41,084 nt of DNA from the IMG/VR virus record IMGVR_UViG_2667527588_000007, positions 1 to 41,084 of that record. One strand, 5' to 3'. This DNA comes from a virus. Taxonomy: Duplodnaviria > Heunggongvirae > Uroviricota > Caudoviricetes. A model generated the notes under the pieces. It was not told the origin of the DNA and did no database searches. It saw only the letters and a list, made by a program, of their open reading frames with translations. The first letter of the stretch is position 1, and each line of letters starts with the position of its first letter. Both the position numbers and the translations under genes were made by a program. Below, piece by piece: positions 6,444 to 11,093 of the stretch.

Positions 6444-6878
6444 ATGTCCGGTAATATCTATACGCTGTACAAATCCCACTGTGAAAATGTTGGAAAGTAT
6501 CGGGGCATTGAAATCAGTGGGGTAGTGTCATCAGTCGAAATAAGCAAAGTTGAATCAAGGGCAACATTACTTACTCTTCTGGACCTTGTCTTACATGAGC
6601 ACCGGAAGAAATTCGGCACTCCCTATAATCAGTTGAATGGGAAAAAGGCTCTGGTTCACCTTATTCTGATGAAGCATCACTGGATGCCAAAACAGATTAA
6701 TGAGATGAAATTTGATGAACTTCTTCTTTCAATTCAGGATGAACTCACACTTGATAAAATAAGCGTAACCGCCCAGAAATTTTTAGATTATCGAGACTGG
6801 AGATCACAAATTCATCACTTTGATGATTTTGACGAAAATGAATGGGATCCTAATTTGTCTGCACAATATCTAAAGTAA
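6444..6878 (+). CDS. hypothetical protein (AT-rich accessory gene in immunity region)
   Basis: 144-aa ORF with AAGGAA RBS, visibly AT-rich relative to neighbours; opposite strand to the leftward early operon. Confidence 0.6.
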   Translation: MSGNIYTLYKSHCENVGKYRGIEISGVVSSVEISKVESRATLLTLLDLVLHEHRKKFGTPYNQLNGKKALVHLILMKHHWMPKQINEMKFDELLLSIQDELTLDKISVTAQKFLDYRDWRSQIHHFDDFDENEWDPNLSAQYLK

Positions 6879-7056
6879 CATCCTGTGATAAAACCGTGAT
6901 TTCCTGATCCAGTTTTTTTAAGGAGTCTATTGTTTCCTGTCGATAAGACAGCACTTCACGAAGCTGGTTTATAGCTGCCAGCTTCTTTGTCATCCACTCA
7001 TAAATTTCCTCATCTGTGTAGCCAGGCGCGACGATTTTGGGTTCTGTTTTGTGCAT
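6850..7056 (-). CDS. hypothetical small protein (first gene of leftward operon)
   Basis: ATG at 7056 preceded by AGGAG RBS at 7-nt spacing; 68 aa; track start at 7071 is TTG; 3' end overlaps the 6444-6878 gene convergently by 29 nt. Confidence 0.55.
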   Translation of the reverse strand: MHKTEPKIVAPGYTDEEIYEWMTKKLAAINQLREVLSYRQETIDSLKKLDQEITVLSQDVTLDIVQTN

Positions 7057-7104
7057 TTCACATCTCCTCAAGTTATCAGTTACTTGTTGATGGGGACCAG
7101 ATTG

Positions 7105-7137
7105 TTAAAGAGCTAAGCGTCCTGTAGGGCGCTTTTT
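7105..7137 (+). terminator. intrinsic terminator-like hairpin followed by T-run
   Basis: GCGTCCTGTAGGGCGC stem-loop followed by TTTTTTG. Confidence 0.4.
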
Positions 7138-7290
7138 TGTTGCTAACGAATCATCCTGGACTTCATATGCCCCAGGCGGCTACTTCGTGGGCGTCCTGCC
7201 TGTTCGTTTTTGACATTTACTGACTGCTTACGACACATGCACCGTGTTGCAACCAGATTTTGTTGTAATCCTGTAGTTGGTCTGGAACAA

Positions 7291-7319
7291 AAGATAAAAT
7301 TAAATTGCGAGATATGCAA
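7291..7319 (-). promoter_or_regulatory. candidate leftward early promoter (PL-like)
   Basis: On minus strand TTGCAT, 17-nt spacer, TATCTT; -35 lies within an operator repeat. Confidence 0.35.
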
Positions 7320-7341
7320 GTGATATTTGCGAGATATGCAA
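7305..7341. promoter_or_regulatory. OL-like operator: two direct copies of TTGCGAGATATGCAA (TTGC-N7-GCAA)
   Basis: Identical 15-mers at 7305-7319 and 7327-7341, 22 bp centre to centre; same TTGC-N7-GCAA architecture occurs in the cI-cro intergenic region. Confidence 0.6.
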
Positions 7342-7351
7342 ATTTATAGGT

Positions 7352-7375
7352 AATAAAAAGCCACCTTTCGGTGGC
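7352..7375 (-). terminator. intrinsic terminator downstream of cI
   Basis: GCCACC-TTTC-GGTGGC hairpin with U-run on the minus-strand transcript, 20 nt after the cI stop. Confidence 0.6.
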
Positions 7376-7395
7376 CGATGGATGGGATATTGAGG

Positions 7396-8088
7396 TTAAT
7401 TATGTCTCTTAAGGGTTTGCGACTGACTGATTAAGACCTTTCCAAAGACCATGAATCGGTGTTCGTTTTCGCTAGTAATTCCCCATTCACGGTAAATCTG
7501 GTTATCAGAAATCACCAGCAGTTTGTCAGGAATCATTTGAAGTCTTTTAACGTATATTTTGTCATCAAAACCAAAGACATATATACCATCACCATCAAAC
7601 TGATTGATGCTGACATCAACGAAGATGAGATCTCCTGGCTCAATGGTTGGACACATACTGTCCCCACGAACGTTGATAACTTTGATGTGATTGGCTGGTC
7701 GTCCGCCGAACATTGATACAGCATTATCAGTTCTGTATTCGATGGCATGAATCACATCAATGACATCACCGCCCTGGATAAGGCCATTTCCCGCACTGGC
7801 ACTGATATCCAGCATTTCAATACGGAACACATCCTTCACCTGCGCAACATCCTCATTGTTACTGTTTTTATATACAGTATTACTTTTGTGGGCAGAGGTA
7901 AAGAGATCAGCAATATCAACACCTAAGCTCTTGGCAATATTACTCAGTGTTTGTTCGGTAAATTGTTTTTGCTTACCCGTTTCTAAGCGCGAGATGTTCG
8001 CCGCATCTACTCCTATCGCTTCAGCGAGATCGGCGATTTTCATGTTCTTCGCTTGGCGAAGTTGTCTGACTCGGTTTCCTATGTTCAT
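7396..8088 (-). CDS. cI: CI-type prophage repressor (XRE HTH + S24 LexA-like peptidase domain)
   Basis: N-terminal HTH (RVRQLRQAKNMKIADLAEAIGVDAANISRLETG), C-terminal S24 signature (GDSMCPTIEPGDLIFVD ... KRL); divergent from cro; no SD before ATG. Confidence 0.9.
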   Translation of the reverse strand: MNIGNRVRQLRQAKNMKIADLAEAIGVDAANISRLETGKQKQFTEQTLSNIAKSLGVDIADLFTSAHKSNTVYKNSNNEDVAQVKDVFRIEMLDISASAGNGLIQGGDVIDVIHAIEYRTDNAVSMFGGRPANHIKVINVRGDSMCPTIEPGDLIFVDVSINQFDGDGIYVFGFDDKIYVKRLQMIPDKLLVISDNQIYREWGITSENEHRFMVFGKVLISQSQTLKRHN

Positions 8089-8185
8089 GCGTTTATTACA
8101 TTTCTTTATTGCGTGATAAGCAAATCAACTTGCGCAAAATAATTGCGTGAAATAACATGCATAACGCGCAATATTTGGAGGGCGT
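8089..8185. promoter_or_regulatory. OR-like operator/promoter region between cI and cro
   Basis: TTGCGTGATAAGCAA (8109-8123) matches TTGC-N7-GCAA; candidate PR -35 TTGCGC (8130-8135) and -10 TAACAT (8153-8158); GGAGGG RBS for cro. Confidence 0.55.
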
Positions 8186-8446
8186 ATGCAATCACCATTA
8201 CGAAATGTGCGTAAGGCGCATGGTTTCACTTTGCAGCATGTTGCTGCGGGTGTTCAAGTCAATCCAGCGACGTTGAGTCGTATTGAGAGGCTGGAGCAGA
8301 TTCCATCTATCGAGCTTGCAGAACGTTTAGCCAATTTTTTTAAGGGTGAAGTCAGCGAAATGCAGATTCTTTATCCGGCACGTTTTCAATCTAGCCAAAA
8401 CCAGAATGGGTTTAAACCACAGGAACAGGAGGTGAACCGTGGGTAA
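8186..8446 (+). CDS. cro: Cro-like HTH regulator
   Basis: 86 aa; HTH QHVAAGVQVNPATLSRIER; divergent from cI; strong RBS. Confidence 0.8.
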   Translation: MQSPLRNVRKAHGFTLQHVAAGVQVNPATLSRIERLEQIPSIELAERLANFFKGEVSEMQILYPARFQSSQNQNGFKPQEQEVNRG

Positions 8447-8990
8447 GCATCACTGGAAAGTAGAAAAACAGCCTGAGTGGTACGTGAAAGCTGTCAGAAA
8501 AACTATCGCAGCGTTGCCGGGGGGGTACGCTGAAGCTGCTGACTGGCTGGATGTAACAGAGAACGCATTATTTAACCGCCTTCGTGCCGATGGCGATCAG
8601 ATTTTCCCGCTGGGATGGGCAATGATTTTGCAACGTGCTGGTGGAACTCACTTCATTGCTGACGCTGTGGCGCAGTCTGCAAATGGCGTCTTTGTGTCTC
8701 TTCCTGATGTCGAGGATGTGGACAACGCCGATATCAACCAACGCCTGCTGGAGGTCATTGAACAGATCGGCAGTTATTCAAAACAGATTCGTTCAGCAAT
8801 TGAAGACGGTGTAGTGGAACCGCATGAGAAGACAGCAATTAACGACGAGCTGTACCTCTCAATTTCGAAGCTGCAGGAGCATGCAGCACTGGTCTACAAA
8901 ATTTTTTGCATTTCAGAAAGTAATGACGCCCGCGAGTGTGCAGCTCCGGGCGCCGTGGCGTGTCGTGACTGTGGAGAAACTAACGCATGA
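8439..8990 (+). CDS. hypothetical early regulatory protein
   Basis: GTG start with AGGAGG RBS; 183 aa with C-terminal Cys cluster; occupies the position after cro. Confidence 0.5.
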
Positions 8991-9334: not shown

Positions 9335-10276
9335 ATGAGCACTAAATTAACCGGCTATGTATGGGATGGTTGCGCAGCGTCAGGCATGAAATTATCCAGC
9401 GTGGCAATTATGGCCCGCCTGGCTGATTTCAGTAATGACGAAGGTGTGTGCTGGCCATCAATTGAAACCATTGCCCGTCAGATTGGCGCGGGGATGAGTA
9501 CCGTCAGGACGGCTATCGCACGGCTGGAAGCAGAAGGCTGGTTAACGCGTAAGGCGCGTCGCCAGGGTAACCGCAATGCGTCGAATGTTTATCAGCTTAA
9601 CGTTGCGAAGCTTCAGGCAGCGGCATTTTCTCAACTGTCAGATTCTGACCCGTCAAAATCTGACGCATCAAAATCTGACCCGTCAAAATTTGATGCGTCG
9701 AAATCTGGCAAAAAAGCGGGTTTTCACCCGTCAGAATCTGGCGGGGATCCGTCAGTAAAATCAAAACATGATCCGTCAGATAAAAAACCTTCTCGTCCGG
9801 ACGCTTCGCAACCGGACACGCAGACGGATGAACAGGATTTTTTAACTCGCCATCCTGATGCGGTTGTATTCAGCCCTAAAAAGCGCCAGTGGGGAACGCA
9901 GGATGATTTGACCTGCGCACAGTGGCTCTGGAAAAAAATCATCGCCCTGTACGAGCAAGCCGCCGAATGTGACGGCGAGGTGGTTCGTCCCAAAGAACCG
10001 AACTGGACAGCCTGGGCAAACGAAATTCGCCTAATGTGTGTGCAGGATGGTCGTACTCACAAACAAATCTGCGAGATGTACAGCCGCGTCAGCCGCGATC
10101 CGTTCTGGTGCCGTAACGTGCTCAGCCCGTCGAAGCTGCGGGAAAAATGGGATGAGCTTTCCCTGCGCTTATCACCGTCCGTCAGCACGTACACCGAAAA
10201 ACGCGAAGACCCGTACTTCAAATCCAGTTACGACAACGTGGACTACAGCCAGATCCCGGCAGGATTCAGGGGGTGA
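9335..10276 (+). CDS. replication initiation protein (lambda O-like, HTH N-terminal domain, internal ori iterons)
   Basis: N-terminal winged-helix (IETIARQIGAGMSTVRTAIARLEAEGWL); 15-bp tandem iterons inside the coding sequence encoding an SD-x-SK peptide repeat. Confidence 0.8.
   Translation: MSTKLTGYVWDGCAASGMKLSSVAIMARLADFSNDEGVCWPSIETIARQIGAGMSTVRTAIARLEAEGWLTRKARRQGNRNASNVYQLNVAKLQAAAFSQLSDSDPSKSDASKSDPSKFDASKSGKKAGFHPSESGGDPSVKSKHDPSDKKPSRPDASQPDTQTDEQDFLTRHPDAVVFSPKKRQWGTQDDLTCAQWLWKKIIALYEQAAECDGEVVRPKEPNWTAWANEIRLMCVQDGRTHKQICEMYSRVSRDPFWCRNVLSPSKLREKWDELSLRLSPSVSTYTEKREDPYFKSSYDNVDYSQIPAGFRG
9644..9703. repeat. origin iterons: four tandem 15-bp repeats (TCTGACCCGTCAAAA-like) with degenerate copies to about 9790 followed by an A/T-rich tract
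   Basis: Direct repeats visible at 9644-9658, 9659-9673, 9674-9688, 9689-9703; A/T-rich 9757-9790. Confidence 0.7.
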
Positions 10277-10278
10277 TC

Positions 10279-10767
10279 ATGAGTCTTTTGAATGAAGTTC
10301 AGAAATTCATTGAAGCCCATCCGGGGTGTACTTCCGGAGACATTGCGGATGCTTTTGCAGGTTACTCACGGCAGCGCGTTCTGCAGTCAGCAAGCAAGTT
10401 ACGTCAGAGTGGGCGTGTGGCTCACCGTTGTGAAGGAGATACACGCAGACATTTCCCACGCCTGACTGAGAGAGCGCAGAAGCCGGAACCACAACCAGTT
10501 CGTGAAACCAGACCTGTGCGCAATTTCTATGTCGGCACTAACGATCCCCGGGTGATTTTGTGCCTGACCCGCCAGGCGGAAGAACTGGAGTCCAGGGGCT
10601 TATACCGTCGTGCTGCAACGGTGTGGATGGCGGCATTCCGTGAAAGCCACTCCCAGCCAGAACGAAACAATTTTCTGGCGCGTCGTGAGCGGTGCTTACG
10701 GAAAAGCAGCAAGCGCGCTGTATCGAGTGATGAGTGGTATCTGTCAGGGAATTACGTGGGGGCGTAA
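10279..10767 (+). CDS. hypothetical protein (C-terminal region weakly PerC-like)
   Basis: ATG at 10279 after AGGGGG; 162 aa; C-terminal W/R-rich segment recalls PerC-family activators (low confidence). Confidence 0.45.
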   Translation: MSLLNEVQKFIEAHPGCTSGDIADAFAGYSRQRVLQSASKLRQSGRVAHRCEGDTRRHFPRLTERAQKPEPQPVRETRPVRNFYVGTNDPRVILCLTRQAEELESRGLYRRAATVWMAAFRESHSQPERNNFLARRERCLRKSSKRAVSSDEWYLSGNYVGA

Positions 10768-11093
10768 TGACGACGTTAACTCAATGCCAGCAGCAGGTGC
10801 TGGATATGCTGATTTCTTACCAGAAAGAGCGTGGCTTTCCGCCAACCAATCAGGAGGTGGCAACCATGCTGGGATACCGTTCAGTGAATGCAGCGGTAGA
10901 GCATCTTCGTGCACTGGAGAAAAAAGGCGTCATCACGATAAAGCGTGGCGTGGCCCGGGGGATAACGCTTCATACCGCGGTGAAGGACGACGACAGCGAG
11001 GCGGTCGGGATTATCCGCGCACTGCTTGCCGGTGAGGAAAACGCCAGGCTGCGTGCAGCCCACTGGTTACATGAGAGAGGCCTGAAAGTATGA
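10767..11093 (+). CDS. LexA N-terminal DNA-binding-domain homolog (no peptidase domain)
   Basis: TLTQCQQQVLDMLISYQKERGFPPTNQEVATMLGYRSVNAAVEHLRALEKKGVITIKRGVARGITL aligns by eye with LexA residues about 5-70; TAATG coupling to upstream gene. Confidence 0.7.
   Translation: MTTLTQCQQQVLDMLISYQKERGFPPTNQEVATMLGYRSVNAAVEHLRALEKKGVITIKRGVARGITLHTAVKDDDSEAVGIIRALLAGEENARLRAAHWLHERGLKV

Follow-up and report, generated by a model that had tools for sequence, protein, structure and literature searches.

The DNA examined here is a stretch of 41,084 nucleotides (hereafter, the window) from the IMG/VR virus record IMGVR_UViG_2667527588_000007, a lambdoid prophage whose immunity region includes a cI repressor gene read from the minus strand, and the element in question is a 20-bp LexA (SOS) box that lies inside the coding sequence of that gene. 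The CI protein carries an HTH_3 domain (helix-turn-helix, HTH; amino acids 7-62, E = 1.2e-11) and a Peptidase_S24 domain (amino acids 104-218, E = 6e-19), and by its domains, its Ala-Gly bond and its Ser/Lys dyad it fits the class of self-cleaving HTH plus S24 repressors. Residues Ala99-Gly100, Ser144 (in GDSM) and Lys181 (in VKRL) were invariant in an alignment of 20 CI sequences. Shigella phage SfII has an immunity region with 99.3% DNA identity to this one; for several E. coli phages, Stx2-converting ones among them, the figure is about 90%.

The plus strand at positions 7860-7879 reads TACTGTTTTTATATACAGTA, exactly as a first-pass annotation of the window had noted, and the 20-mer spans cI codons 70-76 (N-T-V-Y-K-N-S), that is, the NTVYKN codons named in that annotation and the serine codon after them, which encode the linker between the HTH and S24 domains. 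It agreed with the LexA consensus TACTGTATATATATACAGTA at 18 of 20 positions, with both half-sites (CTGT and ACAG) intact and 8 bp apart, and it was the sole match with up to three mismatches in the 41-kb window; none of 100 dinucleotide-preserving shuffles of the window gave a match at that threshold. The bare CTGT-N8-ACAG core, taken alone, was not significant (one found, 0.59 expected). Scoring with a matrix, a check suggested in the annotation, was performed on a heterology-type scale (HI-like, after the heterology index, HI) derived from 29 known E. coli operators, the scale being approximate. The box scored 0.9, and 1.4 with a matrix from which umuDC and sbmC, whose sites are identical to it, had been left out, against 11.6 for the runner-up 20-mer, a value worse than that of every operator in the matrix (range 0.9-10.3), and the scan of the 41 kb found no second LexA-grade site.

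Read on the sense strand of cI, the box is base for base the umuDC operator of E. coli MG1655 (L028, positions 429-448), which lies 19 nt ahead of the umuD ATG. The umuDC site has a published HI of 2.77, and the basal expression of a umuDC promoter fusion was undetectable (PMC2994835). By sequence, then, the cI 20-mer is more than the near-consensus box originally described: it duplicates an operator that is known to bind LexA very tightly. From this identity with a biochemically established site we infer that LexA binds it, with an affinity that the flanks could modulate, and it is very nearly certain that the 20-mer is a functional LexA operator. Of the features that mark gammaproteobacterial LexA operators, a palindrome, a score separated from background and conservation as a DNA element were found in it. 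The coordinates of the box and of the features around it are collected in Table 1.

Table 1. Features of the cI region and the LexA-like gene in the window (+ and -, strands; aa, amino acids; ORF, open reading frame).
Feature	Position	Strand or sequence	Basis and remarks
cI repressor gene, 230 aa (HTH, linker, S24 autocleavage domain)	7396-8088	-	Domain profile matches
LexA (SOS) operator, candidate by sequence	7860-7879	-	TACTGTATATAAAAACAGTA on cI sense strand; cI codons 70-76
Candidate -35 TTTACC (codons Phe63-Thr64)	7897-7902	-	17 nt upstream of TACTGT; putative
Candidate -10 TACTGT (left half-site of the box)	7874-7879	-	Matches TATAAT at positions 1, 2 and 6 only; putative
Shine-Dalgarno-like GAGGA	7850-7854	-	11 nt upstream of the Val84 GTG; duplex with 16S 3' end, -6.4 kcal/mol
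Second Shine-Dalgarno-like AGGTGA	7836-7841	-	5 nt upstream of the Val87 GTG; read from the sequence
Proposed nested in-frame ORF (C-terminal-domain-only isoform, 147 aa)	7396-7839	-	Starts at the Val84 GTG, 7837-7839; putative
Alternative isoform start, GTG of Val87	7828-7830	-	29 nt after the box
Intrinsic terminator just 3' of cI	7359-7376	-	Terminator scan; annotated terminator in SfII; would stop the PRM transcript as well as the putative internal one
OR operators between cI and cro	8109-8171	TTGCGTGATAAGCA 8109-8122 (+); TTGCGCGTTATGCA 8158-8171 (-), inverted	Candidate CI operators
OL-type operators, 3' of the cI terminator	7305-7340	TTGCGAGATATGCA at 7305-7318 and 7327-7340, 22 bp apart	Candidate CI operators
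LexA DNA-binding-domain paralog, no S24 domain	10767-11093	+	PF01726, E = 2.9e-19; 43% identical to LexA residues 1-86

Homologous cI genes were collected from one genome per species (24 loci), from IMG/VR and from GenBank phages; a first IMG/VR scan returned near-identical E. coli copies only, and diversity was then supplied by re-seeding with divergent members. Of the 24 genome loci, 20 had the box on the same codons. Overall, 74 distinct linker variants were obtained, and in 71 of these a LexA box (HI-like scores, 0.8-6.9) occupied exactly those codons. When the 70 full-length genes, which diverge from one another by at most 47%, were clustered by nucleotide distance, a cut-off of 15% gave 31 groups and one of 25% gave 15. 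Box-bearing members were found in Escherichia/Shigella, Salmonella, Citrobacter, Klebsiella, Kluyvera, Pantoea, Mixta, Rosenbergiella, Proteus, Serratia and Cronobacter. The Salmonella member is sb38 of ST64B (its LT2 orthologue in a published table is STM0898), the Citrobacter member belongs to phiNP, and that of Cronobacter, in phage ENT47670, encodes a CI with 50% protein identity and keeps the box.

In the alignment of 20 CI homologues (69-95% identity) the linker was hypervariable, and the only invariant residues there were T71, V72 and S76, whose codons carry CTGT and ACAG. Codon choice at these positions was nearly fixed among the 71 box-bearing variants: the box Thr codon was ACT in all of them (background use in the same genes, 36%), the Val codon was GTA in 68 (background, 19%) and the Ser codon was AGT in 70 (background, 16%). 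The codon ahead of the Thr ended in T in 63 of the 71, and the codon before the Ser always had A or C as its second base and C as its third, so that the residue there is N, Y, D, H, S, T or P. CTGT and CAG were invariant throughout, the spacer stayed AT-rich, and compensatory changes were not observed. Where Y73 was replaced by C or F, the DNA change fell at box position 9, a position at which the recA operator also departs from consensus. Positions T1 and A2 of the left half-site were kept more strictly than T19 and A20 of the right half (at position 20, A in 39 and G in 32), an asymmetry that fits a left half doubling as a -10 element. On this codon evidence, the linker residues T-V-Y/C-x-N/Y/D/H-S are set by the DNA motif and not the DNA by the protein, because the DNA must read CTGT...ACAG, and the box is judged to be under strong DNA-level selection and not a product of chance. 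The annotation had called such a box unexpected in a CI that already possesses an S24 domain; the domain was confirmed, and the strength of the selection on the site bears that remark out.

The three exceptions among the 74 variants came from Dryocola (L019 and L020, in one of which the box was lost and in the other degenerate, CGCTGTGCAAAAGCACAGCG) and from Phaseolibacter (L024). All of the more distant CIs that were examined, with up to 44% identity and other N-terminal domains (HK022, BTP1, Turner, a Klebsiella phage, Providencia, Mannheimia and Omnitron), were devoid of the box. The Phaseolibacter flectens homologue (L024, 3001-3687), 40% identical, has neither the intragenic box nor the Ala-Gly/SASAG cleavage motif, and a LexA-like box, TACTGGTTAAATTTTCAGTT, is located at 2766-2785 of the same locus, about 235 bp upstream of the start of the cI homologue, through which LexA may have been connected to this gene by a different route. 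A 1,407-bp contig labelled Actinomadura rugatobispora (L025) also bears a cI of the usual enterobacterial kind, LexA box included, and is most likely a contamination of the actinomycete assembly. The C-terminal module of CI (about 42-50% identity) was joined to unrelated N-terminal domains in Omnitron (L109), ST-29 (L110) and HK022 (L117), combinations that show domain shuffling at the linker. The repressor YmfK of the E. coli K-12 element e14 belongs to another family and has no LexA-grade site.

Downstream of the box, within the linker, translation-initiation signals were detected in frame with cI. In the window, the distance from the box to the candidate GTG codons is 20 nt (Val84) or 29 nt (Val87); LexA-controlled genes of Salmonella have a box-to-start-codon distance of 21.6 +/- 5.8 bp, and their box overlaps the transcription start (PMC8072944). 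The AGGTGA element gave a duplex of -3.9 kcal/mol with a short anti-Shine-Dalgarno (anti-SD) string that omits the C pairing with its first G. A frame opened at either GTG shares the stop codon and the terminator of cI. All 71 box-bearing genes had an in-frame GTG (rarely ATG) preceded by a Shine-Dalgarno (SD) sequence (-5.3 kcal/mol or lower) between the box and the Ala-Gly site, and in 62 of the 71 variants the SD-preceded start was placed at the Val84 or the Val87-88 column. Two null models were compared with this: random 20-codon windows elsewhere in the same genes held an SD and a start in 9.7% of cases, and synonymous re-codings of the linkers with the codon usage of the genes themselves gave them in 18% on average, against 19/20 observed.

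The SD strings varied by lineage (GAGGA, GAGGG, GGAGA, CAGGAG, AAGGGGGG, AGGAGGGAGGGA and GAGGT) and are located in the most variable part of the gene; since the sequences differ between lineages, the initiation signal appears to have been maintained through sequence turnover. The three members without a good box, namely both Dryocola loci and Phaseolibacter, were also without SD and start, the start column in Dryocola being GGT or GGA. A start at residue 84 or 87 falls after the HTH_3 domain and ahead of the cleavage-site strand and the S24 domain, and the isoform would begin one to four residues before that strand, so that it would retain the whole S24 domain and have no HTH. When this isoform was used in a sequence search, the only matches among solved structures at E <= 0.001 were UmuD and UmuD'. 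Taken at the level of sequence, a tight operator, a leader of about 20-30 nt with an SD and a start, and an S24 domain together reproduce the standard layout of an SOS gene, and especially that of umuD.

Several further observations were made on the putative leader and on C-terminal-domain products. In the E. coli/Shigella clade only, the leader contains a six-codon mini-ORF, ATGAGGATGTTGCGCAGGTGA (MRMLRR*; 7836-7856, minus strand), whose stop shares bases with the Val84 GTG (GTGA), an arrangement typical of translational coupling. A fold predicted for 7805-7945 (minus strand) pairs codons 62-65 (CUCUUUACCUCU, anti-SD-like) with the initiation region AGGUGAAGGA in the full-length mRNA; a transcript starting in the box would be without that pairing segment. 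An mRNA switch of this kind was evaluated over the 71 homologues against shuffled controls and was not adopted, the outcome being inconsistent (median z = -0.93, 32% below -1.64); pairing of the SD region was strong in some homologues, with z down to -6. The CI of Klebsiella phage ST101-KPC2phi6.1 (L113, 796-1281) is annotated from an internal Met, with 161 aa, and the box-less genes of Omnitron (L109, 2183-2938) and Mannheimia PHL101 (L118) have a strong SD and an in-frame start in the linker; internal initiation of C-terminal-domain-only repressors might be more general than its LexA-gated version. Two candidates for free-standing C-terminal-domain genes were discarded: that of Citrobacter phage Omnitron is a full-length CI with another N-terminal domain, that of Salmonella phage ST-29 is a frameshifted CI, and both are box-less.

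A promoter at the box was sought as well. TTTACC, TTTACA or TTTACT was found 17 nt upstream of TACTGT in most homologues, and the umuDC regulatory region reads TTGATC-17 nt-TACTGT, with the same -10 hexamer and geometry. In Salmonella ST64B, STnc1310 maps to the PL region, some 330 nt past the downstream end of cI, and thus outside the gene. No match to Rfam RNA families was obtained in 6800-8600 at E <= 1.

These results can be assembled into a mechanism, to which we give an even chance, in which cI would contain a nested, umuD-like SOS gene whose LexA-gated internal promoter yields a C-terminal isoform that favours induction. In an undamaged lysogen, host LexA bound to the linker-coding DNA would silence a weak internal sense promoter composed of the candidate -35 TTTACC, a 17-nt spacer and the candidate -10 TACTGT, with transcription starting inside the box. 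An operator as tight as that of umuDC would be vacated only at deep LexA depletion, that is, after severe or sustained DNA damage, and a short transcript would then run from the box to the cI terminator. If the SD then directed initiation at the Val84 or the Val87 GTG, which follow the box in frame at 20 and 29 nt, translation would give a product of about 16 kDa (residues 84/87-230), an S24 domain with the cleavage-site strand, Ser144, Lys181 and the dimerisation surface and without the DNA-binding domain. CI-type repressors bind their operators as dimers held together by the C-terminal domains, and the same domains provide cooperativity; a free C-terminal domain should for this reason be dominant-negative, forming mixed dimers with full-length CI or competing for its cooperative contacts. 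Operator binding would be weakened and the switch pushed to lytic growth, so that the isoform probably poisons repressor dimers and promotes induction. LexA depletion would be a second input beside RecA-stimulated autocleavage of CI, and cI would in effect encode its own SOS-controlled antirepressor.

Several points weigh against this proposal. The internal promoter stays putative because scanning called no sigma-70 promoter at the box, either in the window or in the two homologues that have the best -35; TACTGT agrees with TATAAT at only three of six positions, and the -35-like TTTACN coincides with a conserved Leu-Phe-Thr motif, so that its conservation, being confounded by coding, cannot be credited to promoter function. 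The published transcriptome tables for Salmonella ST64B give cI expression for the whole gene only. On the side of translation, the spacing of 11 nt between GAGGA and the Val84 GTG is longer than the usual optimum, and GTG is a weak start codon. One clade (9/71) has neither the Val88 GTG nor its SD, and only the Val96 GTG is left there, four codons before the Ala-Gly site. An SD with a start was also found in the linkers of 3/7 distant box-less CI genes, and SD-like strings form easily in these linkers because they are rich in Glu, Gly, Asp and Lys codons; the signal is enriched in the box genes but is not unique to them, and purine-rich linker codons contribute to it. Finally, CI keeps all of its autocleavage residues, so an additional route to induction is not obviously needed, and the direction in which the isoform would act, for or against induction, is purely inferred.

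The last of these points leads to the alternative that survives best, which keeps the same anatomy and reverses the effect: the isoform would be a RecA* decoy or a damper of cleavage, an SOS-induced brake by which the prophage ignores all but overwhelming damage. All of the anatomical evidence applies equally to this protective role, and the isoform, in which the Ala-Gly site and the catalytic residues are kept, should be a substrate of RecA*. There are precedents, since the Hex protein of phage 434 blocks RecA-stimulated repressor cleavage (PMC3564112) and the Gifsy prophages have LexA-regulated dinI homologues (PMC8072944). However, Hex is expressed constitutively from PRM, outside LexA control, and an operator as tight as that of umuDC opens late, in deep SOS only, when a phage gains most by leaving; a protective isoform was therefore considered unlikely, though it has to be kept in view.

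Two other alternatives dispense with the isoform, and neither is likely. In the first, LexA bound inside the gene would, as a roadblock, obstruct RNA polymerase that had started at PRM or PRE, trimming cI expression in undamaged cells and releasing it during SOS. The presence of a very high-affinity site midway in a weakly transcribed gene agrees with such a role, as does the failure of the promoter scans to find anything convincing. However, LexA is not known to be an effective block to elongation; the conserved SD and in-frame start, and their loss together with the box, would be left without explanation, and the logic is perverse, with more repressor being made just as RecA* destroys it. 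We regard this as improbable. In the second, the box would control a plus-strand promoter directed across the 5' half of cI and PRM toward cro, which could produce antisense RNA, interfere with PRM or allow read-through into the lytic operon. The palindrome does give TACTGT on the plus strand too, in an orientation that faces OR and cro, about 230-300 bp away, and such a promoter would bypass the control of PR by CI. Nevertheless, a -35 would have to lie in hypervariable linker sequence that shows no conservation there (CACCTG in the window), the hexamer is CACTGT in 32 of the 71 variants, the sense-strand SD and start have no explanation, and no Rfam match supports an RNA in the region. An antisense coding function was rejected, as the plus-strand open frames across the box are not conserved (minimum lengths, 4-7 aa). 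The chances of an antisense promoter were likewise judged to be low.

The first-pass annotation had hinted at a link between the box and the LexA-domain paralog encoded by the same prophage, and only part of that link stood. The paralog has a clear LexA winged-helix domain with an almost identical recognition helix (RSVNAAVEHLRAL, compared with RSPNAAEEHLKAL in LexA), and it is carried by all of the E. coli and Shigella phages that have this cI. The association is not obligatory, however: the box was kept in ST64B, the Klebsiella phages, phiNP and ENT47670, in which no relative of the paralog was found at E <= 1e-8, while the paralog was present in phages with unrelated immunity regions (SfV, SfIV, cdtI and Stx2c phages). 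The paralog cannot for these reasons be the cause of the box, which moreover follows the host LexA consensus exactly. Judged from its helix, it may well bind the box as a second ligand, but that the box serves mainly the paralog, bound after induction, for example to shut off cI or the nested gene, is very improbable.

The box might instead have no regulatory function, being a palindrome that arose by chance, a remnant of gene fusion, a linker for recombination between domain modules or an mRNA hairpin. In favour of this, the C-terminal module is shared with CIs of other N-terminal domains (Omnitron, ST-29, HK022), which points to recombination near the junction, and the 20-mer can form a 6-bp hairpin. 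On the sequence comparisons, however, this reading is effectively refuted: silent positions are kept over up to 47% nucleotide divergence in a hypervariable linker, the conserved pattern is that of the LexA motif rather than of any stem, the box is absent from the CI relatives whose N-terminal modules were exchanged, and the shuffled windows never reached the match.

With regard to the paralog itself, it was found in 60 phage records, typically beside dam and rusA. Its 'LLAGE' Ala-Gly motif aligns with the LexA cleavage site, though the S24 domain is absent, and by these features it could be a LexA mimic unable to cleave itself, made from the early lytic operon. In SfII (L001, 6980-8442) a dam methylase gene is located between the PerC-like and the LexA-like genes; in the window the PerC-like ORF (10273-10767) abuts the LexA-like ORF and dam is absent there. 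As for the prophages that carry this repressor, a response to UV induction has been reported for the relatives phi1720a-02 and phiNP (bioRxiv 10.1101/2025.01.01.630987), and the lytic genes of ST64B go up under peroxide and nitric oxide stress according to published transcriptome work on that phage. An AlphaFold2 model of CI, built from the alignment of 20 sequences, had a mean predicted local distance difference test (pLDDT) score of 46, with only the N-terminal helices (residues 3-62) reasonably confident, and was not used for fold searches.

The nested-gene mechanism was compared with known systems, of which umuDC, a late SOS gene encoding the S24-domain protein UmuD, is the closest in layout. 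The 20-bp operators are identical, the operator-to-start distance is 19 nt for umuD and 20 nt for cI, a TTGAnn (umuDC) or TTTAnn (cI) hexamer lies 17 nt upstream of TACTGT, and the product (for cI, the putative isoform) is in each case an S24 domain on its own, its cleavage site preceded by a short N-terminal tail. In contrast to umuDC, the putative unit in cI sits inside another gene and in frame with it, has no umuC partner and relies on a promoter that is only a candidate; its S24 domain is that of a phage repressor, with an expected role in control of the switch and not in translesion synthesis.

Other phages place a separate antirepressor under LexA, as is the case for Tum of 186 and Fels-2 and AntC of N15. 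The Gifsy proteins GfoA, GfhA and GftA (PMC3121763) share with the present proposal that LexA gates a repressor-inactivating protein during SOS. Nevertheless, each of the Tum, Gifsy and N15 antirepressors has a small gene of its own, preceded by a conventional promoter that contains the LexA box, and the repressors of that type are usually not self-cleaving, whereas CI of the window keeps its autocleavage residues and the cI system, with no other LexA-grade site in the window, has no separate antirepressor gene, its putative antirepressor being a truncated copy of the repressor. The box being intragenic, this system is not a member of that family, though it may work in a similar way.

Truncated inhibitors made within a gene also have precedents: Inh of Tn5 and Esc of P22 are N-terminally truncated, in-frame products of an internal start and inhibit the full-length protein in trans. 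The pairs Tnp/Inh and SieB/Esc resemble the arrangement proposed for cI in the internal in-frame start with its ribosome-binding site, and in the loss of the N-terminal functional region with the interaction surface kept; they differ in that neither gates the short form by an intragenic consensus LexA operator and neither is an immunity repressor, and inhibition by the cI isoform is putative. Hex of phage 434 is likewise a second product in or overlapping a repressor gene that modulates RecA-dependent induction (PMC3564112), but it is read in another frame, from the PRM transcript and without LexA regulation, and it stabilises lysogeny. In the Bacillus phage GIL01, host LexA binds phage DNA for the decision between lysis and lysogeny, as is predicted here, and it acts as the phage's own repressor together with gp7 (PMC4551915). 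The SOS boxes of GIL01 are in an intergenic lytic promoter and there is no CI-type repressor, in contrast to the cI case, where LexA would be an accessory input in a classical CI gene.

In the full-text literature searched, in which the coverage of older subscription journals is incomplete, we found neither a LexA box within a gene of the cI type nor a truncated repressor under SOS control described. In the lambda paradigm, self-cleavage stimulated by RecA is the only means by which a CI-type repressor responds to DNA damage, and in the alternative paradigm (186, Gifsy) a separate antirepressor is controlled by LexA. A LexA operator conserved within the repressor gene would be a third design, in which the LexA status is read inside cI. 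As a tentative generalisation, this enterobacterial repressor family may encode two proteins, CI and a LexA-gated 'self-antirepressor' started in the linker, so that induction would integrate RecA* cleavage with LexA depletion, and the C-terminal module may have arisen as, or may mimic, a umuD-like cassette behind an HTH domain. The hypothesis is open to direct silent-mutation tests in the existing phiNP and phi1720a-02 reporters; by codon reading, the silent changes ACT to ACC and AGT to TCC would destroy both half-sites and leave the CI protein unchanged.

Apart from the mechanism, the box is a clean example of regulatory DNA dictating protein sequence, and predictors of prophage SOS-dependence and regulon searches that are limited to promoter regions would miss such sites by design. 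The cI family was found in 1,040 of 5,426 complete E. coli genomes (about 19%), and its carriers include the Stx2a and Stx2k toxin phages, the Shigella serotype-converting phage SfII and Salmonella ST64B, which carries the effector gene sseK3 according to published work on that phage. Since the family controls phages with medically relevant cargo, an extra input to the induction threshold would bear on antibiotic-triggered toxin release and on the spread of these phages.

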